From Octopus vulgaris (Eukaryota), in the NCBI GenBank assembly GCA_951406725.2, contig OX597819.1:99696001-99760000 (forward strand): 64,000 nucleotides of DNA, given 5' to 3'. Positions 1,640 through 55,600 of this stretch are shown piece by piece. Below the pieces are notes generated by a model. The model had not been told where the DNA came from. It saw nothing but the letters and a program-made list of their open reading frames with translations, and ran no database searches. The position numbers and the translations under genes were made by a program. Within the stretch, counting starts at the first letter, position 1. Every line of letters starts with the position of its first letter.

Positions 1640-3813
1640 TGTTTCATGTCTTCTATGCAAGCCGTATGCCAGAAATATGTCCCAGAGCACAAGGCCAAAA
1701 CAAATAGGAGCAAGATTCCAAGAGACAGGAAGATCCTCATGAGACGACGGACGAAGGTTGCAAATCGTCTCAACCAACATCCCAAAAGTAGCGAAACGTC
1801 CCGCTTAAAAACAACACCGATGGAGATCGAAAAAAGGCTGCAAAAATCCTATGTGAAGGAGAAAGCAGACAAAGAAGCCTGGGTTATAAAAAACATTAAA
1901 TCAAACCCAAAGGCCTTCTTTCATTACGCAAAAGAAACAGTCTCAGTGCACTACAAGATAGGACCCCTCCTCCAAAAGGATGACTCCCTCACAGACTGTC
2001 CAACTATGATCAGTAAAATGCTGAATGACCAGTTCAAAAGTGTCTTTACCACCCCGTTGGAACACAGACAAGTGAACGAACCAGTGGGCTTCTTTGCCGC
2101 CTCACCTATAACCAGCGAGGCGGTTACAATAGAATGTATTGACATTAGCGAAAAAGATGCCCTACTAGCCATAGATGAAGTGGACACAAACTCAGCTGCT
2201 GGTCCAGACGGTTTCCCAGCCATCCTCCTCAAAGCGTGTAAGCATGCCCTGGCAAAACCCCTCAAGATTCTCTTCCAGAGCTTTCTTGCGAATGGCAAAC
2301 TGCCAAGCAAGCTGAAGGAGGGAATAATATGCCCAATACATAAAGGGGGAAGTAGAGCAGATGCCAAAAACTATAGGCCTATCTCTCTGACTTCACACAT
2401 CAGTGGATAGTCAGAAAGAAACTAATCGTATTCCTTGAGGAAAATAACTTGCTGAGTAATACCCAGCATGGTTTTCGACCAGGTAGGAGCTGCCTGACCC
2501 AGCTCTTACAGCATTATGACTGGGTGTTGAGGCAGTTACTCAACAAATCAAATGTGGACGTAATCTACCTTGATTTTGCAAAAGCTTTTGACAAGGTGGA
2601 TCATGGTATGATATGCCACAAACTACGTGACCTCGGCATAGCTGGAAAACTTGGAGTGTGGTTGCATGACTTCCTGAAAGATAGGAGTCAGGCAGTAGTG
2701 GTTAATGGAGCCACCTCTATGAACACACAAATAGTGAGCGGTGTTCCACAGGGCACTGTCTTGGGACCACTGCTTTTTATAGTGGCCCTCTCAGATATGC
2801 CCTCAAATTCCCGGATAGCCACTCTGGCCAGCTATGCAGACGATACGAAAGTCTCGCAGAAAATACAGAACCCCAGCGATGTTGCACACCTGCAGCAGGA
2901 GTTGGACTCAATCTACAGATGGGCTGAGCATAATAATATGCAGTTTAATGCTGAAAAATTCCAGGCCCTGCGCTACCAGCATCCAAAACTGAATATTAAA
3001 CTTACAGGATACATCGGTCCACAGGGAATTTCAATCCCAGAGCCTAAGTCTGTGAGGGACCTGGGTATCGACATGAGTGATGATACCTCTTTCCAAGTGC
3101 ACATTACCAGGATGGCGACAAAGTGCAGACGAATTGCTGGGTGGATCCTAAGAACATTCAGACCCAGAGATAAGGAAACCATGATGGTCCTCTGTCGGAC
3201 ATTCGTCTTCAGTCGCCTGGATTACTGCTCACAGCTATGGTCACCAACCAGTGTAAAATTAACAGCGGACCTTGAAGCAATCCAGAGAAGATTCGCAAAG
3301 AAGTTCGTCTCTTTGCAACAGCTCAGCTACTGGGAAAGGTTGAAACAGCTAAGACTGTACTCCCTGGAGAGAAGACGGGAGAGGTATGCAGTAATATATG
3401 TCTGGAAGATCATGGAAGGAATTGTGCCAAATTTTGGCATTGTAAGCTACATCAATGATAGAACGGGACGACACTGCATAGTGTCAAAGATCCCAGCAAT
3501 GCCATCGCGCTTCAGGACCAGCTTCTGCAACAGCCTGGGTTTCAAGGGCCCACAGCTTTTTGATATTCTTCCAAAGAGTCTGAGGAACTTGCACAAAATA
3601 GATGTAGCGGTTTTAAATCAAAGCTGGACATTTTCCTGTCAAGAGTACCAGATGAACCTACCTCACGGCAAGAGGTGCAAATGAGAGTAGCTGTATCAAA
3701 CTCCATTCTTCACCAAGTGCCACATATTAGACGAGGTTCGTCGCAATAACAGTGTAGCACAAAACGGCAGTGCATCAGCATGGCCGCAGCTCTGAGCTGA
3801 AACTAGAAAAAAA

Positions 3814-4300: not shown

Positions 4301-7300
4301 TTCCAAACAAGGAATCCCCAAATCTGCCGCTATTCCCAGCGAGACAGATTGTGTTTGCACAGGGATTGCCCCTTTACCCATCTCCCGGGGACTCGTCGGA
4401 CATTTAAAGATAACCACTCACATAAAAATAGCCGCGGCCACAGTCACCTGCGGTTCCCTAGACAGGAAACCACCTCTTCTTCCACTTTTTTAGCTATAAT
4501 GAATCTAGCAAAAGAACTGGAAAAAAACATCCGAGCTATCACCCACCGCCATCCACCACTATTACCCCACTACACATGCCATTAAAAAGCAATCAAATTA
4601 ACAAATCACCAAAACAATTAAAACCATCCACTCTCGCCTCAACATTTCTGCTTAATGCCCAAGGCATCAGCCCTTCCACCAATACACAAAAATGGAAGAT
4701 AAGATTCCTGGAGGACTGGGTCGAGGCCCATCCAAACCACATCCCTTTCTTCGTCCTCACTGAAACCCATCTTAGTGACCTCCACTTGGAAGCCGAGGTG
4801 AAAGTTAAAAATTTCAAAACCATTCGTGCTGATCGTGTTGGCAGAAGAAAGGGTGGGACTGCCATTTATGTCCATGATTCATTCTCAACAGAAGCCATGA
4901 ACATATTTTCGAATGGATACTGCGAAGCAGTCGCTGTATTCAGTCAAACCAACAACTTAATAGTAGTTGGGCTCTACAGACCACCCCAAACGCCCCTACC
5001 ATGCTTCAAGGAATGCCTCAACAGCATAAAGTGTTTCATTCAGCAGTGTCAACCTGACAACATTTTAATGATGGGAGATTTCAACCTTCCCGGGGTTGAC
5101 TGGTCTACAAACAGTCTGCCGCCAGGTTCTTCTCTCTCAACCCCTGACAGGGAGGCAGTGGAATCGCTTCTTGACTTCATGGATGACTTCTTCTTGTCCC
5201 AACTGGTACTCGAACCAACGAGATGTCACAAAAACGTCTTAGACTTAATTTTCAGCAATCACACTGATACTATCCACAATATTGCAGTGGAGAAAACCCT
5301 ACTCTCCGACCATGACATGGTTCTCTGTGATCTGAGATTTCACTGGCCAAAATGCAAAACAAATGTCATCCCTCCTGTTCATCCATTTGACACTATGGAT
5401 TTCCACAATGCAAACTGGGAAGCGATCAATAATGATCTTGCACAAGTCGATTGGTCCTTCGCGCACACATACACACCCACTAACATCAAAAAGTCCTGGC
5501 AGTCACTTGTAGACACCATCACGAACATATGTGCAAGACACACCCCATTAAGATCTGCAAACAAATCTAAGTGTCGAATCCCTAGAAATAGAAAATCTCT
5601 CATAAGGAAAATTAAAAGAATCAACAAAAAGATCAACATGCTGAAATACTGTCAACAGCAACACACCAACCTGACTGCCATCTCGTCGCTAGAGATTAAA
5701 AAACATAAACTCCAAAACAACATGATGTCTATCATCAATAGTCAGCGAAGAGCTGAAGAGGCCTGGGCCATTGAGAAGATCAAACTCAATCCCAAAGTGT
5801 TCTTTTCATTTGCAAAAAAACACAGAGTCACTGGTTCTACTGTTGGCCCTCTGATTGATGAAAATGGTATTCTTCAAGACAATGCCAAAACCATGGGAGA
5901 AATATTGCAGAAACAATATTGCTCTGTTTTCAACAATCCTGATATGACTGATCTGGGCTGTATCAGTGATGTTACTCCCCAATACACTTTATCGGACATA
6001 ACATTTGGCGCTCCTGATGTCTTAGCAGCAATAAAGGAAATGAAGCATAATTCAGCAGTAGGTCCCGATAGGTTCCCTGCTTGTGTCTTGAAGATGTGTC
6101 AAAACCAACTTGCACCCCCTCTAGCCAATCTGTGGCGGAACTCATTGGATGCTGGATATATACCAGAAGACCTTCTATCCCAGTCTGTTGTCCCAGTTTT
6201 CAAAAAAGGAAACAAATCGCTTGCCGTGAATTACCGTCCAATCTCACTCACCTCTCATATCATCAAGGTATTTGAGAGGGTGCTGAGATCGCGTATGACT
6301 CACTTCCTTGAGAGTCATAATATGCTGAACCCCAACCAGCATGGATTCCGTAATGGGAGAGATTGCCTGACGCAGCTACTGCATCATTTTGATGACATTT
6401 TGAGAGCCTTGGGAGAGGGTTCCAACACTGATGTCATCTACCTTGATTTCAGCAAGGCCTTTGACAGGGTTGATCATAAGATCCTTCTGAGAAAGCTGTC
6501 CAATATTGGTGTCACTGGAAAGCTGCTGCAATGGATCAAGTGCTTCCTCTCTAACAGAACCCAACATGTTGTAGTCGAAGGAGTCAAATCCAGCCCAGCC
6601 AAAGTCAGCAGTGGTGTCCCACAAGGCACTGTGTTGGGCCCACTTCTCTTCATCATCTACATAAATGATATTACTGACACCATCAAACACAGCAACATCA
6701 GAACCTTCGCTGATGATTCCAAGCTCCAGAAGGTCATCAATGGCGTGGATGACCGAATAAACCTTCAGTCAGACCTACTAGCTGTTGTCCAATGGGCGGA
6801 AAAGAATAACATGTTGCTAAATGAAGACAAATTCGAACTGATCCACTTTGGAAGGGAGGACGCTCTGAAACTCCCATACTCTCTTCCTTCTGGAGAAATT
6901 CTCATGGCATCCAACAACATCAGAGACCTGGGAGTAACAGTGGACAACAACATAAGCTGGGCTACACATATAAGCAGCAAAGTTGACATGGCCCGCAGAA
7001 TGTGTTCCTGGATTCTCAGAACCTTCCAGTCGAGAGATTCCCACGCTATTATCCTTCTCTTCTCCACTTTTGCCCGACCCCACCTTGAATACTGCTGTCC
7101 ACTGTGGTCTCCCTACACAAAACAAAATATTATGAGAATTGAAGCTCCCCAAAGGTCAATCACAAAAAAGATAGATGGCATGTCAGACCTTGACTACTGG
7201 GGTAGACTAGAGAAGCTGAAACTGTATTCACTCCAACGACGCCGTGAACGCTACATTATCTGTATGATGTGGAAAATATTCCATCAGCACTGTCCGAATG

Positions 7301-7680
7301 ATGTTGGCATCACCTTCAAAATGCATCCAAGGCTTGGACCACGTGCCATCCGTCCACAACAAAAATCTAAATCGCATCACATAACGACAATACGGCACAA
7401 CTATTTCACCTCAATTGGACCCGCTCTCTTCAACATTACACCAGGACACGTCAAAAAAGAAACTGACCACACAAAATTCAAGAAGTCTTTGGACAAATTC
7501 CTTCAAACAGTACCGGACAAACCATCCACACCCGGATATGTCTCCGCAAACAATAACTCTCTGCTCGAATGGGCCTTGGTGCCCAAATCCTGAACTGAAA
7601 GACTTCGCCAGGTGGTGCTATTAAGTTAGACATGGCCTGGGCCAATACTGGCCAAAAACCTTTCTAAGTTATTCTAAGTT
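4301..7680 (+). mobile_element. LINE with intact ORF2, 5'-truncated in ORF1, inserted in (TA)n
   Basis: ORF1 remnant to 4585 with a C-x8-C-x4-C-x3-H finger ([19 protein letters not shown]), overlapping the ORF2 start by 10 nt. The 3' UTR ends in (TTCTAAGTTA)2. TA arrays lie on both sides. Confidence 0.95.
4576..7593 (+). CDS. LINE ORF2: apurinic-like endonuclease plus reverse transcriptase (1005 aa, uninterrupted)
   Basis: APE motifs NAQG, LTETHL, YRPP, MGDFN, LDLIF, SDH. RT motifs [26 protein letters not shown]. Confidence 0.95.
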
Positions 7681-25142: not shown

Positions 25143-25715
25143 GGCGGCGACCTGGCAGAAACGTTAGCAAGCCGGGCGAAATGCTTAGCAGTATTTCGTC
25201 TGCCGTTACGTTCTTAGTTCAAATTCCGCCGAAGTCGACTTTGCCTTTCATCCTTTCGTGGTCGATTAAATAAGTACCAGTTACGCAATGGGGTCGATGT
25301 AATCGACTTAATCCGTTTGTCTGTCCTTGTTTGTCCTCTCTGTGTTTAGCCCCTTGTGGGTAGTAAAGAAATAGGTATTTCGTCTGCCGTTACGTTCTGA
25401 GTTCAAATTCTGCCGAGGTCCACTTTGTCTTTCGTCTTTTCGGGGTCTATAAATTAAGTACCAGTTACGCACTGGGGTTGATGTAAGCGACTTAATCCGT
25501 TTGTCTATCCTTGTTTATCCTCTCTGTGTGTAGCCCCTTGTGAGTAGTAAAGAAATAGAAATAGGTATTTCGTCTGACTTTACGTTCTGAGTTCGAATTC
25601 CGCCGGGGTCGACTTTGCATTTCATCCTTTCGGAGTCGATAAATTAAATACTGGGTCGATCGAATCGACTGGCCTCCTCCCCCAAAATTTAGGGCCTTGT
25701 GCCTAGAGTAGAAAA
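25143..25715 (+). mobile_element. SINE family B, tandem trimer; further copies 24600-24800, 26590-26690(-), 29378-29550, 40630-40850, 51876-52320, 58760-58960(-)
   Basis: Head GGCGGCGACCTGGCAGAAACGTTAGC followed by repeated ~180-bp body units. Confidence 0.85.
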
Positions 25716-29261: not shown

Positions 29262-30533
29262 ATGTGTATGTATAGATGCATACAAAGATTGTTGTTGTTA
29301 TTCTTCTTTTTCCTCTTCTTCTTCTTCCTCTTCTTCTTCTTCTTCTTCTCATATGCAGTAATACCTTATGTTACTTTGAGGCGGTGCTTTGGCAGACACG
29401 TTAGAATGCCGACAGAAATGCTTTTACGCTATTTTGTCCGTCCTCATGTTCTGAGTCCCAATTTGTCAGGGGTCGACTTTGCCTGTCATCCTTACAGGGC
29501 CGACAAAATAAGTACCATTTGAACACTGGCGTCAATGTAATCGATTTTGAAATTAATGTTATAGTTGTTTTCTTCACCTTTCACGCCATCATGCAGTTTA
29601 TAGCATGTAGCATGTGAATTCCTGAAGATTTAGTAGTTATTTTTAGGAAATCAGCATCTGATGTTTGTGTATCGCGTGGTAGTTAATTATATTGTAGTGT
29701 CGTGTTTAACCCCTCCCACTATGATGAACCTAACCAGAAGGTTCTATTTTAGTTACATACAACTTTAAGATGAACTCAATCAAGAGTTACTTACCTTCCA
29801 ATTCAGAAAGGTTCTGAAGAGTTTCTTCCCCTGAATCTTCAACTACTACATACGGATTTTAGATGAAAAATTATTTGAGAACTTAAATATCGCTGTCGTT
29901 ACCATAACCGCACATTTTGTTTTATTGTACACATCATCATAACCACGCATATTTGTGTTGTATTACACACATTTAACGATGTTCATATGTAACTTTGCCG
30001 TATATAAAATGCGTGTCTGCATGCGTGCGTGTGTGTATATGTGTGTGTTGTGCTTGTATGTTTGTGTGTGTGACAGCGTGCGATCGCTTATAGAGCCCGT
30101 GGGAGTAAGACACTGAACAGCGATCCAAAAATGTCTCTGCTTAACATTATTTCACACCTGTAAGAAATAATTATGTATTCTCTCTTACTTCTCGCGAGTC
30201 ACCTTCCATGTAAATGCAGATATGTACTCCAAATTCACAGTATGTCATATACTACATATTCTGTCCCAATTGTAAAGAAAATTGTACTGGCTAAACCAGC
30301 AATTCCCTTTGCCAATGTGCAACAATCCACAGACAACATATCAAAGAAAAACAGTTACACAACATTCTTCTAAGTAATAGTCCGGAAATATATGCAAAAA
30401 GTAGATTCAAGATATTTCCCTACTACAAATGTCCAAGTGATGACCCAACGTAGCAGAAAGCAAATAAATGCATTTTATCAAAAACTCCTGTACTAAAAAT
30501 CAATGTATAAAAACAAAAAGATATATTTATAAC

Positions 30534-30849
30534 AATTGCAGCGTGGAAGGTGTTTGTAAGCCATTTAAGAAACACACAAAAGCCGTTCGATTCACTTCAA
30601 CATTTAAGTTTAATTTGTCAAAATATTTTCGTGCTGCATCTCGGAGATGCAGCACGGATTTTTGTCAGTGAACAGGTCGCGGTCTTAAAGCGACGAAAAT
30701 ATTATAAACAAATTAAACTTAAATGTTGAAGTGAATCGAACGGCTTTTGTGTGTTTCTTAAATGGCTTACAAACACCTTCCACGTTGCAATTGTTTTCGT
30801 TTCAGCACACGATCTCAGATCAAATCACTTGCTATGCAAGTACATCTCC
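30534..30849 (+). mobile_element. small foldback element with ~100-bp inverted arms, 14-bp target-site duplication and a G3:C8 hammerhead-like core; related copy 31253-31460
   Basis: Arms 30531-30632 and 30692-30794. GATATATTTATAAC at 30520-30533 and 30850-30863. tttgtca-GTGAACA-g-gtcgc..gcgac-GAAA-atatt. Confidence 0.7.
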
Positions 30850-31236: not shown

Positions 31237-31673
31237 CACACACACACATATGAAATTGCAGCGGGGAAGGACCAGTTCACTGTTAAAATTTCGATGCAGC
31301 ACGAAGTTTTGTCAGTGAACAGGTCGCAGTTTCAAAGCAACAAAAATATTTTGACACAAATTCAATTTAAATGTTGAACTGAATCTAACGGCTTTATGTG
31401 TGTTTTTAAATGGCTTATAAATGCCTTCCACGCTGCAATTACTTTTGTTTCAGTACACGAACAATGATAAATATCAAAGTGAGTTATATACAGCAGCGGT
31501 AACACATCGTGACGTATTTTTGCCATTTCAATATGGCTAACCCCTAAGGGTGGATGCTACTGTAGTTTTTAGCCCCAGGAGGACACACTCCTCCAGCTGG
31601 CCATAGACACACTATCGGTGTCCTGTCAGTATTTGCAAAGGGAAGTCATCCTTCCCGTGTTCAACTTATGATA

Positions 31674-31718
31674 CACACGGACTCGAGTTTCGAGATATTG
31701 ACCTCTCGTCAGCGTGTG
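31674..31718 (-). ncRNA. type I hammerhead ribozyme, array copy 1
   Basis: cacacg-CTGACGA-gaggt caat atctc-GAAA-ctcgag-TC-cgtgtg; predicted cleavage after GUC, between 31680 and 31679. Confidence 0.88.
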
Positions 31719-32026
31719 ACAATCATAGTTGTCGCCGAGAATTAGATTTCCTTCACAAATACTTATACTTTTTCCAGCGTCCACTGTCGCTGATATTGAA
31801 AAAGTGAAATCAAACAATGATAAATATCAAAGTGAGTTATATACAGTAGCGGTAACACATCGTGACGTATTTTTGCCATTTCAATATGGCTAACCCCTAA
31901 GGGTGGATGCTACTGTAGTTTTTAGCCCCAGGAGGACACACTCCTCCAGCTGGCCATAGACACACTATCTGTGTCCTGTCAGTATTTGCAAAGGGAAGTC
32001 ATCCTTCCCGTCTTCAACTTATGATA

Positions 32027-32071
32027 CACACGGACTCGAGTTTCGAGGTATTGACCTCTCGTCAGCGTGTG
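32027..32071 (-). ncRNA. type I hammerhead ribozyme, array copy 2
   Basis: cacacg-CTGACGA-gaggt caat acctc-GAAA-ctcgag-TC-cgtgtg. Confidence 0.92.
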
Positions 32072-32379
32072 ACAATCATAGTTGTCGCCGAGAATTAGAT
32101 TTCCTTCACAAATACTTATACTTTTTCCAGCGTCCACTGTCGCTGATATTGAAAAAGTGAAATCAAACAATGATAAATATCAAAGTGAGTTATATACAGT
32201 AGCGGTAACACATCGTGACGTATTTTTGCCATTTCAATATGGCTAACCCCTAAGGGTGGATGCTACTGTAGTTTTTAGCCCCAGGAGGACACACTCCTCC
32301 AGCTGGCCATAGACACACTATCTGTGTCCTGTCAGTATTTGCAAAGGGAAGTCATCCTTCCCGTCTTCAACTTATGATA

Positions 32380-32424
32380 CACACGGACTCGAGTTTCGAG
32401 GTATTGACCTCTCGTCAGCGTGTG
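32380..32424 (-). ncRNA. type I hammerhead ribozyme, array copy 3
   Basis: Identical to copy 2. Confidence 0.92.
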
Positions 32425-32742
32425 ACAATCATAGTTGTCGCCGAGAATTAGATTTCCTTCACAAATACTTATACTTTTTCCAGCGTCCACTGTCGCTGAT
32501 ATTGAAAAAGTGAAATCAAACAATGATAAATATCAAAGTGAGTTATATACAGTAGCGGTAACACATCGTGAACGAGTATTTTTGCCATTTGACAATATGG
32601 CTAACCCCTAAGGGTGGATGCTACTGTAGTTTTTAGCCCCAGGAGGACTGTACACTCACTCCAGCATGGCCATAGACACACTATCTGTGTCCTGTCAGTA
32701 TTTGCAAAGGGAAGTCATCCTTCCCGTCTTCAACTTATGATA

Positions 32743-32787
32743 CACACGGACTCGAGTTTCGAGGTATTGACCTCTCGTCAGCGTGTG
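32743..32787 (-). ncRNA. type I hammerhead ribozyme, array copy 4
   Basis: Identical to copy 2. Confidence 0.92.
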
Positions 32788-33174
32788 ACAATCATAGTTG
32801 TCGCCGAGAATTAGATTTCCTTCACTTTGAATACTTATACTTTTTCCAGCGTCCACTGTCGCTGATATTGAAAAAGTGAAATCAAACAATGATAAATATC
32901 AAAGTGAGTTATATACAGTAGCGGTAACACATCGTGAACTCGAGTCCGTGTGTATCATAAGTTGAAGACGGGAAGGATGACTTCCCTTTGCAAATACTGA
33001 CAGGACACAGATAGTGTGTCTATGGCCAGCTGGAGGAGTGTGTCCTCCTGGGGCTAAAAACTACAGTAGCATCCACTCTTAGGGGTTAGCCATATTGAAA
33101 TGGCAAAAATACGTCACTATATATATATATATATTTATAATAACGTCACTATATATATATATATATTTATATAT

Positions 33175-35090
33175 AACGGGAAGCTTTATGAAAATAGACA
33201 AAAGACGAAGGCAGGTGGAAAACAAACAAACAATTGTATTAGTATGGCGCTCAGGAAATATAAATAAAACAAGTCTTTAACGATTCGAGCCTACGCTCTT
33301 CAACAGAAAGATACACAGAGAGAAAAAAAACACAGAAAGAAGGAGAGAAAAAAATGCGTGCAGTAACTAACGAATCAACATGGCGATCTGACTTCGGCCA
33401 GAGGTCAAAGATCAAACATGAGACGCGAGAGCGAAATAAGGGGAGATAATAGGGTTGATAATAGGGTTGAATGACCCTAGGATAGGTCTGGACAGGTGTA
33501 TGTATGGGGTTGGTGTATGTATTAGTATGTATTAGTATGTATTAGTACGTATTAGTATGTATAAGTGTGTGTGTATGAGAGAGTATAAGTGCGTATGAGG
33601 GGTCTGGACGTGTGTATGTATAGGGTTGGTGTATGTATTAGTATGTATTAGTACGTATTAGTATGTATTAGTTAGTGTATGTATTAGTATGGAACATCAT
33701 ATAGGATGTGATGTGTAAAGTCGTGTGGTGTAGTGAGGAGAAGAGGGGGAGGGGGAGAAGAGGGGGAGAAGGGGAGGGGAAGAAGAGAGGGGAAGAGGAG
33801 AGGAGGGGGGGAGAGGAGGGGAGAAGGAAGGGGAGGAAAGAGGGGGAGAGGGAGAGAGAAGGGGAGTGAGGGAGCAGAGGGAAGAGGGAAGGAGGGAGGG
33901 AGAAAGAGGGAAGAAGGGAAGGGGAGTAGGTGTGAAAGGATGAAGGACTGAAGAAGTAGGGGTCGGGGGGAAGGATAGGTGAGGAGGGGGAGAGGGGGGT
34001 TAGATGAGGAGGTGGGGAGAGTTGAGACCAAATGGCGTATAAGAGCGAAGAGAGAAGATTAATTCCTGTTCACGGCGCAAACGTGAATCCGGATGGCCTC
34101 TGTGTAAGGACAAACCGAACACAGATAGGTGTTGCAAGGAGTGACCGGTGGAGCGGAAATGGCGTGAGACCGGTGTGCCGTTCGCAAGGTGGATGTCACG
34201 AAAGTGTTCCGCGAACCGGTCAGCCAAGCGGCGTCCCGTTTGTCCGATGTACAAGGAATTGCAGAGAGAGCAAGAGATGCAATAGATAATATTGCTGGAG
34301 GTGCAGGTGAAGGAGTGGATGATGGGATAGGGTCGATGGTGGGTGTTAGTGAGGCGGGTGGTGTTGGAGAGGTAAGGGCAAGTGCGGCAACGTGGGCGGG
34401 AGCAGGGGAACGAGCCGGGTTGGGAGGTAGGGTCAGGGAAGGAGCTATGGACCAAAAGGTCTCGAAGGTTGTGGGCTCGTTTGAAAGAGGGGAGGGGTCG
34501 GTTAGGGAAGAGGTGTGAAGTGGACGGGTCGGACTGGAGATGACGTAGGGTCGTGGGGTGGTAAGTGAGGGGAAAAGGGAGGCGGGAGACTACAGGGCGG
34601 GTTCGGGGAGAGAGAGCAGATACACGGTCCACGGACCGTGCTCTGGCAAGGGCGGTGTGTATAGTGGTGAGGGGGTATCCACGTAGGGTGAAGTGGTGAG
34701 CCATACGTTGAGACTGAGTCTCAAAGTCATGGTCGTCACTACAGAGCCTACGTAGACGTAGGAATTGGGAATAGGGGATGGAAAGCTTGGTGTGTTCTGG
34801 GTGGGAGGAAGAGAAGTTGAGGTATGAGTGTGAGTCTGTGTGTTTGTAGTGAATGGAGGTGGTAAGAGTGGAGTGAAGAATGCTAACCGAAATGTCGAGG
34901 AAGGAGACAGAGGTGTTGGAGATAGTGGAAGTGAAGTGGAGGGCTGGATGGAAAGATTGGACGAAAGAGAGGAAGGAATCTAGATGTTCACGGGAGAGTG
35001 AGGTGGCACCGATAATGTCGTCAATGTAACGACCATATAGTTCAGGAGTGGGACCAGTGAAATTAGAGAATATTTGGGCCTCAACATATG
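33175..35090 (-). mobile_element. 5'-truncated Penelope-like element (Neptune-like) with long 3' region
   Basis: RT plus GIY-YIG ORF, a pyrimidine-rich and tandem-repeat 3' region, and a degenerate hammerhead-like motif CTGTTGA-agagcgtaggctc-GAAT at ~33273-33310 (related remnant at ~43375-43450 +). Confidence 0.88.
34000..35090 (-). CDS. Penelope-like RT C-terminal half, Cys-rich linker and GIY-YIG endonuclease (5'-truncated, open)
   Basis: YGRYIDDII, VSFLDI, SSSHP, CSRPRCRTC, NIIYCISCSLCNSLYIGQTGRRLADRFAEH, PFGLN. Confidence 0.9.
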
Positions 35091-52600: not shown

Positions 52601-55600
52601 GATGATGATGATACGGAGGAGGTGGATAGCAGTTAAGGTGATGCTGCTGCTAGCATTGTCGTTTGCAAAAACGATGACGGTGTTGTTAGTACAGAGAGTA
52701 TGAATTGATAGCGGTAGCTGTCGTGGTAATGATGACGACGAGGAGAAACATAATGTTGTTGGTGGTGGTAGTAGTGGTGGTGCCACTATCATTAGAACCT
52801 CTCACACCACAAACATTATTCCTACCACTACCACCACAATTATCATCCCCTCCATAACTATCATTATTGATACTATCCACAAAGGCGGTGAGCTGGCAGA
52901 AACGTTAGCACGCCGCACGAAATGCTTTATGGTATTTCGTCCGCCGTTGCGTTCTGAGTTCAAATTCCGCCGAGGTCGACTTTGCCTTTCATCCTTTCGG
53001 GGTCGATAAATTAAGCACCATTTACACACTGGGGTCGATGTAATCGACTTAATCCGTTTCTCTGCCCTTGTTTGTCCCCTCTCTGTTTAGCCACTTGTGG
53101 ATAGTAAAGAAATAGGTATTTCGTCTGCCGCTATTTTCTGTGTTCAAATTTCGCCGAGGTCGACTTTGCCTTTCATCCTTGCGGGGTCGATTAAATAAGT
53201 ACCAGTTATGCAATGGGGTCGATATAATCGACTTAATCCGTTTGTTTGTCCTCTCTGTGTTTAGCCCCTTCAGGGTAGTAAAGAAATAGAAATAGGTATT
53301 TCGTCTGCTGTTACGTTCTGAGTTCAAATTCCGCCGAGGTCGACTTTGCCTTTCATCCTTTCGGGGTCGATAAATTAAGCACCATTTACACACTGGGGTC
53401 GATGTAATCGACTTAATCCGTTTCTCTGCCCTTGTTTGTCCCCTCTCTGTTTAGCCACTTGTGGATAGTAAAGAAATAGGTATTTCGTCTGCCGCTATTT
53501 TCTGTGTTCAAATTTCGCCGAGGTCGACTTTGCCTTTCATCCTTGCGGGGTCGATTAAATAAGTACCAGTTATGCAATGGGGTTGATATAATCGACTTAA
53601 TCCGTTTGTTTGTCCTCTCTGTGTTTAGCCCCTTCAGGGTAGTAAAGAAATAGAAATAGGTATTTCGTCTGCTGTTACGTTCTGAGTTCAAATTCTGCCG
53701 AGGTCGACTTTGCCTTTCATCCTTTCGGAGTCGATTAAATAAGTACCAGTTATGCAATGGGATCGATGTAATCGACTTAATCCGTTTGTCTGTAATTGTT
53801 TGTGCCCTCTGTGTTTAGCCCCTTGTGGGTAGTAAAGAAATAAGAATAAGAGTCATGCTTTAAAAAAATAATAATATATACTGGGATCGATTTATTTGAC
53901 TAAAAATTCTTCACAGTCGTGCCCCCAGCATGGCTGCAGTCTAGTCACTGAAACAAGTAAAAGATAAACGATGAAAAATTACCTGAAGTCCCTCTTCCTG
54001 TGAAAGTCAAACGCTTTAGGATGACAGTCCATCTCAGTTTCTTGATTTTTGAAAACAGAATTCCTCCAGAACTTTGGCATCATAGGATTAAGACCGATCG
54101 ACTCATAGAACTGCTCGGCTTTTTGTTGAAGCTCTGTTGGTGTCAGGGATTGGTTATTGATTAATGTATCAAAATCCTCTTTCGTATTAGACGGGAATGG
54201 TCGAACGATCGGGAAAATATTACCCCATGCTTGAGCCCACATATCACCTGAAATTGCAAATATTATGCTTTTATATATACTTTTTATTTTTATCTTATAT
54301 ACTTTTATAAATACATTTATCCATATATTCACAATAAAGTGTATATCTACTTGAATGTAGAATTAAAAAATGACATTCTAACAGTTACGAAGACGAGGAT
54401 TCCAGTTGATCCGATCAACGGAACATCATCTTCGTGAAAATATTGCGTATGTGGTTGAGCACTCCACAGACACACGTATCCTTAACGTAGTTCCCATGGA
54501 GATTCAGCATGACACAGGATGTGACATGGTCGGCCCTTTGAAATACAGATACAATTCATTTTTGCCAGCTGAGTGGACTGGAGCAACGTGAAATAAATAG
54601 TCTTGCTCAAGGACACAATGCGCCGCCGGGAATCGATCTCACGACCTTACGACCGTAAGCCGCTTACCTTAAGCCACGCGCCTTCACTATGTAGAAGATT
54701 ACATCAGTATTACTAGAATACAATATGCAGAATATTCATTTCTACTCAAGGCCCAAGGCCCGAAATTTTGGAGAGGGGACCAGTCGATTAGATCGACTCT
54801 AGTACTTAATTTATCGACCCCAAAAGGATGAAAGACAAAGTCGACTTCGGCGGAATTTGAACTCAGAACGTAAAGACGTAAATACTGCTAAGCATTTCGC
54901 CCGGCGTGATAATGATTCTGCCAGCTCACCGCCCTCACAATATGCAGAATATTCTTTTCTACTCTCGGCCCAAGGCCCTAAATTTGGGGGTAGGGAACCA
55001 GACGATTAGATCAACTCCAGTACGCAATTGGTACTTAATTTATGGACGCCGAATGGAAAGTGGACCTCGGCGGAATTTGAACTCAGAACATAAAAAACTG
55101 ACGAAATACCTATTTCTTTACTACTCACAAGGGGCTAAACACAGAGAGGACAAACAAGGACAGACAAACGGATTAAACGGATTATATTGACCCTAGTGTG
55201 TAACTGGTACTTATTTATCGACCCCGAAAGGATGAAAGGCAAAGTCGACCTCAGCGGAATTTGAACTCAGAACTTAACGGCAGAAAAAATACCGCTAGGC
55301 ATTTCGCTCGGCGTGCTAACGTTTCTGCCAGCTCGCCGCCTTCGCAATATGCAGAATATTTCAATAAAATTTTACAAAAGCAAATGTAACACACAAATGT
55401 GTTATTGGCTGAAACTATTATCGGGTGTTTTAGGAGGAAACACTAATAATTGTTTGTAAATTATTTCTGAAACATCAATTAATCAATTTACATAATTAAC
55501 CTAAATGGATTTTAAGACGATGTCAATCGCTCTAATGGAATGGATGGACTGAGTATGTTCACTGAAACACCTTCATTATAGGGATTATTATCTCATACTC

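Follow-up and report, generated by a model that had tools for sequence, protein, structure and literature searches.

A young hammerhead retrozyme family of Octopus vulgaris with Penelope-like insertion anatomy

Introduction

Non-LTR retrozymes and their circular RNAs have been described in coral, mussel and axolotl (Cervera & de la Pena, 2020; PMC7229834). As characterized in the main text of that study, these elements form tandem units of about 350 nt (350–390 nt in mussel) with a GC content below 50% and one type I hammerhead per unit; helix III is short and palindromic, an open reading frame is absent and the RNA is strongly self-paired. The Octopus repeat reported here shares all of these properties, the self-pairing being predicted. 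Circular RNA and cleavage were demonstrated in those animals, whereas the Octopus repeat is known here from genomic sequence alone. In the same text, LINEs or Penelope-like elements (PLEs) appear as no more than candidate mobilisers and reference is made to larger target-site duplications; the words 'inverted', 'microsatellite', 'octopus' and 'cephalopod' do not occur in it, and its supplement may list more species. A review also names PLEs as candidate retrozyme mobilisers. Animal retrozymes have since been proposed to be non-autonomous partners of PLEs, owing to their co-occurrence in 35 genomes, none of them from a mollusc, and to pLTR homology in Xenopus (Li, Clavereau & Pollet, 2026; 10.64898/2026.07.22.740005). 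By the account in the main parts of that work, the mobilisation mechanism is still to be shown, cleavage was obtained in only one of nine predicted Xenopus retrozymes and insertion ends are not analysed. How animal hammerhead circles re-enter the genome is an open question, and the published case for PLEs consists of co-occurrence or terminal homology.

The insertions of PLEs themselves have been described as partially tandem structures that include an inverted copy truncated at its 5' end and a tail of 30–40 bp, often at one end only, with a bias for (TA)n targets in some clades (Craig, 2021; PMC8557442). In experiments with a purified PLE protein, both strands of AT-rich DNA were nicked and extended, and cDNA synthesis began at a pair of neighbouring internal positions that define the tail (Frangieh, 2024; PMC11167929). 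PLE hammerheads with an extra base after A9 have been reported, as has the activity of a short palindromic helix III as a dimer (Cervera, 2014).

Here, we describe a tandem array in a window of 64,000 nt of the Octopus vulgaris genome (the whole stretch of DNA analysed) and the dispersed family to which it belongs. The array is one insertion of a young non-LTR retrozyme family, and the anatomy of these insertions, which is the new result, fits the 'tail' signature of PLEs. In Octopus, it is the structure of the inserts that points to PLEs; homology to a pLTR was not detected in the PLE loci compared, in contrast to the earlier proposal. The literature searched, which excludes subscription journals, yielded no earlier description of a cephalopod retrozyme and no report of the PLE tail signature in retrozyme inserts. 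As the Octopus family is young, numerous and short, each insert is visible as a whole and the PLE footprint can be seen directly.

Searches and samples

The genome assembly searched comprises 2.8 Gb in 227 contigs. Exact copies of the 33-nt ribozyme core number 439 genome-wide and those of unit positions 1–30 number 858, with reversed-pattern controls at 0 for both; the difference between the two counts is mainly due to subfamilies with another stem II. A search for the repeat returned 2612 first-look candidates, of which 40 were scored, and a further 3022 candidates came from a search for an older subfamily with roughly 80% identity to the young unit. Most of the sampled young copies show 97–100% identity.

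Because our first sample was biased towards long, high-scoring copies, we also took a census of one contig (C1), in which every match of one pattern was included without selection; it comprises 47 loci. The main set consists of 82 non-redundant loci, obtained by removing overlapping loci of one insert (52 kept, 31 added). Locus L056 duplicates L051 and was left out of the end and haplotype counts on the 82 loci, but was kept in the first set and in the C1 census. Thirty old-subfamily loci were left out of the 82 since their query favoured long ends. The first-pass annotation of this DNA had expected dispersed copies elsewhere in the genome; the two motif counts, together with the 47 loci on C1 alone, bear this out.

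The repeat motif has 0 matches in viral and metagenome contigs. A stretch of the unit is present in 20 of the 24 sequencing runs listed, none of them recorded as RNA, and the joint between unit end and unit start occurs in contigs of all four runs examined, among them a large run with no type on record, one small run giving a single 383-nt contig with no differences. This joint is not evidence for a circle, because a tandem and a circle give an identical joint. An A-to-I editing signature is absent among 143 distinct variants, 14 being A>G against 12 T>C.

The array and its hammerheads

A tandem array with a 353-nt period at 31460..32937 had been noted before. Tandem Repeats Finder (TRF) recovers it (4.2 copies, 98% matches), but these coordinates omit an inverted arm, which is followed in turn by a (TA)n run. 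The insert and its surroundings are made up as follows (window coordinates).

31280..31459, no strand: left flank, a dispersed-repeat copy that is 86% like 30646–30812 and stops at the insert
31460..32937, minus strand: long arm, in which 4.19 units follow one another head to tail, with the RNA sense on the minus strand
31813..31862, minus strand: 'tail' segment of one unit, positions 171–220, between the two inferred reverse-transcription start sites
32937..33117, plus strand: inverted short arm, unit positions 344–353 plus 1–171, ending at the 'short' site (position 171)
33118..33175, no strand: (TA)n target microsatellite after the short arm

Units start at 31460, 31813, 32166, 32519 and 32885, and are numbered from the predicted cut so that 32032 is position 1 on the minus strand. 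Units 2 and 3 are identical and unit 1 differs at 4 positions. Unit 4 (32519–32884) measures 366 nt; its 13 extra bases are scattered beside the inversion junction and may reflect slippage of the reverse transcriptase (RT) or a mistake in the assembly, the sequence here being able to form a hairpin. The GC content of the 353-nt unit is 42%. Read as a circle, the unit has a longest ATG open reading frame of 38 aa, in agreement with the earlier view that it holds no credible one. The predicted fold of the monomer has an energy of -122 kcal/mol (z = -7.7), and 0 of 100 shuffles are equally stable. Near unit positions 76–87 lies a stretch that we take to be A-box-like; ARAGORN detects no tRNA gene.

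All four units carry, on the minus strand, the hammerhead elements CUGACGA, stem II gaggu-caau-accuc, GAAA and ACUCGAGUC.

31674..31718, minus strand: type I hammerhead of unit 1, with a G-U pair in stem II; first base after the predicted cut 31679
32027..32071, minus strand: type I hammerhead of unit 2; first base after the predicted cut 32032
32380..32424, minus strand: type I hammerhead of unit 3; first base after the predicted cut 32385
32743..32787, minus strand: type I hammerhead of unit 4; first base after the predicted cut 32748

A complete minus-strand hammerhead in each unit had been claimed, with cuts at 31679, 32032 and 32385, and both the motif and these three predicted positions hold. 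The Rfam model Hammerhead_1 (RF00163) matches the four units over model positions 1–45, that is over its full length, with 32.2, 32.2, 32.2 and 30.5 bits (E 1.3e-5 to 5e-5). A default Rfam scan of the window at gathering thresholds returns nothing, since these scores lie under the gathering score of 34.

An alignment of 15 copies across subfamilies has 94% of cells paired in a 64-pair structure. In nine of these pairs both partners vary, compared with 4.5 in shuffles (0/500) and 0–2 in slid controls; the nine include an A-U/G-C exchange in stem II as well as hairpins outside the ribozyme. This covariation supports the predicted fold but is not proof of it, because the sequences are related and the structure was taken from one of them. 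The canonical G10.1-C11.1 pair that closes stem II is found in only 3 of the 15 aligned copies, all from the young subfamily, and the older subfamilies have one extra base on each side. Helix I of the Octopus hammerhead has 6 bp and is extended across a bulge, unlike that of the minimal PLE type.

The family almost certainly consists of retrozymes. Its short tandem units, which fall within the range of about 150–450 nt and of monomers to multimers typical of such elements, the hammerhead in four of four units, the lack of coding or LTR structure and the dispersed copies all agree with the non-LTR class to which the array had been assigned, and the inserts are pure unit sequence between TA runs, with no LTR structure.

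Insertion anatomy

Among the 133 arms of the 82 loci, 124 end at one of two fixed sites. Short ends lie at positions 163–176 (70 arms, nearly all at 171–174) and long ends at positions 214–223 (54 arms), with 9 ends elsewhere. The two sites are about 46 nt apart, the tail between them being 43–49 nt, and a TA run then follows 112 of the 124 fixed ends. Head-to-head inverted arms are present in 49 of the 82 loci, and every inverted insert that could be classified at both ends (42/42) has one short and one long end; none has two alike. The first set gave the same result in 34/34 (binomial p 1e-10; a duplicated locus enters this count twice). Loci with a single arm have 22 short, 8 long and 2 other ends, and one further locus is a same-strand pair. 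On contig C1, 25 of the 47 loci are inverted; the 19 that can be classified all combine a short with a long end, and in 6 one end could not be assigned. Older subfamilies, at 76–90% identity, use the same two end sites.

The 5' ends of the arms are scattered, with an excess near positions 106–140. Young arms range from 53 nt to 6 units, and one older copy reaches 8.9 units. The two arms of an inverted insert overlap by at least 3 nt at the junction in 22 of 37 cases by BLAST overlap, against 6% expected; on exact matching this microhomology is weaker, at least 3 nt being common to both arms in 9 of 27, with inserted bases in 9.

The window insert itself obeys the one-of-each rule. Its long arm has its 3' end at 31460, the long site (unit position 220), and its 5' stop near position 168; the short arm ends at position 171, and the two have 1 nt in common at the junction. 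The short site falls in a hairpin loop of the predicted structure. The left end of the insert is among the 12 of 124 fixed ends that lack a TA run, which likely reflects a local deletion.

Several individual loci deserve a separate description. Positions 33111–33178 of the window hold a 32-nt duplication, in which the last bases of the short arm and the TA run are repeated; it resembles a repeated priming attempt. L038 and L039 lie on different contigs and have an identical inversion junction with little common sequence, and may be related by descent. L014 and L024, also on different contigs, have the same inversion junction, where the 9-nt common stretch is a helix of the RNA. One arm of L242 jumps from position 220 to 349, with loss of the 128 nt that separate the long start site from the hammerhead.

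Probable mobilisation by a Penelope-type enzyme

Each feature of PLE insertion (two ends, tail, inverted arm and (TA)n) is seen in the repeat, and we therefore infer a PLE protein as the inserter. A Penelope-type enzyme had already been named as a possible mobiliser; the two fixed 3' ends, the inverted arms and the (TA)n targets are evidence that is new to this claim, and with them the family was very probably mobilised by a protein of this type. With PLEs, as far as their main descriptions go (PMC8557442, PMC11167929), the repeat shares a pair of neighbouring internal sites at which reverse transcription starts, with a hammerhead upstream of them; its inserts likewise have a one-sided tail, an inverted arm truncated at the 5' end and a target that is AT-rich or (TA)n. 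Unlike them, it has no open reading frame and a unit of only 353 nt, and its tail of 43–49 nt compares with 30–40 bp in published PLEs (PMC8557442) and about 40 nt in the Octopus family termed PLE-B below.

Two other routes into the genome have to be weighed against a PLE enzyme. APE-type LINEs can also give 5' inversions, through twin priming, and the window holds an uninterrupted 1043-aa APE-RT frame (4462–7593); about half of the inserts are inverted (25/47 on C1), as such a route would allow. The internal sites at which the second primer of twin priming anneals are variable. The second end of the repeat inserts is fixed, they carry neither poly(A) nor an element-encoded tail, and the Octopus genome contains a PLE family with matching anatomy, so that mobilisation by a LINE appears highly improbable. 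Growth of a DNA-level satellite by unequal exchange or slippage, with the hammerhead as a relic of a PLE terminal repeat, would be in line with the local DNA amplification of PLE termini proposed in the main parts of another study (Li et al., 2026; 10.64898/2026.07.22.740005), and two pairs of loci might have arisen at the DNA level, namely the duplicates L051 and L056 and the pair L038 and L039 with its one common junction. Such growth is at odds with the short inserts themselves, which are scattered in their hundreds over many contigs and have fixed 3' and variable 5' ends, inverted arms and TA flanks, and no unit-like PLE terminus was found among those examined; we consider it scarcely credible.

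Candidate Penelope-like partners

The Penelope-like element that had been reported next to the insert is real.

33175..35090, minus strand: 'PLE-A', a 5'-truncated Penelope-like element with the C-terminal part of the RT, a Cys linker, a GIY-YIG endonuclease and a 3' UTR

Its family has 25077 candidates, the top copies being 98–99% identical, and a 1076-aa open reading frame with RT and GIY-YIG domains. The suggestion that this neighbouring RT is the partner of the repeat is not favoured by its own anatomy. PLE-A has a single 3' end (29/29 copies within 3 nt) and no inverted copies (0/42, 28 of them with both ends in view), and no sequence homology was found between it and the 353-nt repeat; it is a poor partner for these three reasons and was set aside. 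PLE-A is a neighbour and a separate insertion, probably not the partner, and the two simply both insert into (TA)n. As a very abundant and young family with one 3' end and no inverted copies, PLE-A is also an exception to the usual tail anatomy of PLEs. Its RNA continues with ATATAT after the 3' end (L110–L122), matching the (TA)n target.

A GIY-YIG search for other PLE families gave 6136 candidates, of which the best 150 were scored. PLE-B is a young family with a 781-aa frame containing RT and GIY-YIG domains, 27% identical to PLE-A. Its copies end in (TA)n at two sites spaced by about 40 nt, with 101 exact long ends. All four inverted PLE-B copies seen have one short and one long end, three of the four having been picked because their coordinates suggested inversion; four other long-end loci show no second end within 2.3 kb. 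The two-ended anatomy also occurs in at least two older PLE families. No homology was found between the repeat and PLE termini in 30 + 30 + 20 PLE-bearing loci and one pLTR junction, the search for further families having scored the best 150 of the 6136 GIY-YIG candidates. PLE-B is for this reason the best candidate found and not a proven partner; that it is the actual one is plausible, if somewhat doubtful. No hammerhead is among the 119 Rfam matches listed for three PLE loci, almost all of which fall in TA-rich repeats. Two apparent PLE chimeras (L159 and L169), in which diverged relatives of the repeat lie beside PLE genes, proved to be separate insertions.

Circular and linear templates

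Reverse transcription runs across the ribozyme cut site. On contig C1, hammerhead-like sequence lies upstream of the cut in 64 of 65 copies of positions 1–30, in one of these only after an internal jump. A stop at the cut site was not seen among the 133 arms, the single arm called at position 1 continuing upstream into a diverged hammerhead; 7 arms stop at 342–351 against about 4 expected, which is not convincing. The template was therefore either a circle or an uncleaved multimer. The haplotypes of 60 young loci bear on this choice. Four common markers are mixed within 2 of 48, 1 of 37, 1 of 38 and 3 of 54 loci, whereas 31, 18, 13 and 16 would be expected at random, and 9 locus-private variants in 8 of the 60 loci are common to all covering units, 4 of them spanning both arms. 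These uniform haplotypes favour a single monomer copied several times, and we consider it moderately likely that a circular monomer was the main template. Rolling-circle copying of the monomer, as put forward in the first-pass annotation, is thus favoured by the uniform haplotypes and the crossing of the cut site but is not shown, and mosaic loci leave room for linear multimers. The accompanying label of a replicon finds no support, since the sequence can be accounted for by genomic copies that bear the footprints of retrotransposition, and there is no sign of RNA-to-RNA replication.

The same PLE machinery could instead have copied an uncleaved linear multimer, the hammerhead mattering little, as for Anolis Poseidon in vitro. 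Uncleaved RNA would also let the arms cross the cut site. In the main account of the PLE experiments, hammerhead mutations had no effect on insertion and uncleaved RNA was the main substrate in vitro (Frangieh, 2024; PMC11167929). Seven loci are marker mosaics (L012, L014, L029, L035, L038, L039 and the 9-unit L252), and they count against a single circle because template switching, later conversion or assembly error is then needed. In L035 and L039 it is the 5'-most monomer that carries the other haplotype, and L252 is heterogeneous over its 9 units. Parent arrays outside the sample could supply uniform linear templates. Against a linear template stand the many haplotypes, each uniform over the units of its locus, and the private variants common to both arms, as repeated steps from monomer to multimer would seem to be needed, which this explanation does not supply. 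Variants confined to a single unit are common, yet by eye, without a formal test, no pair of loci has the same run apart from one duplicated locus. The conservation of the ribozyme core and stems with compensatory change likewise counts against this explanation. On balance, a linear template is unlikely, and a circular monomer is the reading we carry into the mechanism below.

Proposed mechanism

Taken as a whole, a scheme in which young non-LTR type I hammerhead retrozymes are mobilised in trans by a Penelope-like RT/GIY-YIG protein is likely. By analogy with known retrozymes, tandem genomic copies would be transcribed, and the hammerheads, probably acting as dimers through the palindromic stem III, would cut out 353-nt monomers that are ligated to circles. 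A PLE protein would then nick (TA)n, and cDNA synthesis would start inside the RNA at unit position ~171; a nick in the other strand would prime a second cDNA at position ~217–220, in keeping with the observed ends, the TA target and the one-of-each rule. Each cDNA would run a variable distance, straight across the cut site as the arms do. The two would presumably be joined head to head, often at a short common stretch, to give an inverted insert, and where only one cDNA persisted a single arm would result.

A bolder reading is more tentative. A 353-nt circular ribozyme RNA without homology to Penelope termini may be a true parasite of the Penelope protein rather than a fragment of a PLE, mimicking both start sites by structure alone; a PLE dimer would prime both, from opposite strands of (TA)n, on one circle and copy its way around it up to six times or more. 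If this is true, hundreds of loci in the Octopus genome directly record how an animal circular RNA was retrotransposed by rolling-circle copying with double priming, and an intact candidate enzyme, PLE-B, is at hand for reconstitution. The predictions from the family as a whole are exact, with starts at 171 and at 217–220, one per strand, on (TA)n. As a clean substrate, the repeat lends itself to work on the tail and inverted structures of PLEs, which lack an explanation, and to asking if an RT related to telomerase can roll round a circle of RNA.

Other elements in the window

An older element lies on the plus strand at 604–980, with a direct repeat of ~333 nt and a hammerhead-like core (CUGAUGA...GAAAC) at 843; it ends near a (TA)n run at 1042. 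Its search gave 414 first-look candidates, the scored copies being 71–79% identical, plus one nearby copy at 93%, and a few copies are head-to-tail or inverted. It is possibly another retrozyme or a PLE terminal-repeat family.

The 1043-aa LINE frame considered above is on the plus strand, encodes an APE endonuclease and an RT, and is preceded by a 435-aa frame at 2377–3684. The dispersed repeat to the left of the retrozyme insert is represented by copies at 30500–30812 and 31280–31459 with an inverted segment, the second of which ends at the insert. Tandem arrays of a 180–184-nt unit, which resembles a tRNA-derived SINE, are present at 25191–25651 and 52931–53842, with 2.5 and 5 copies, respectively.
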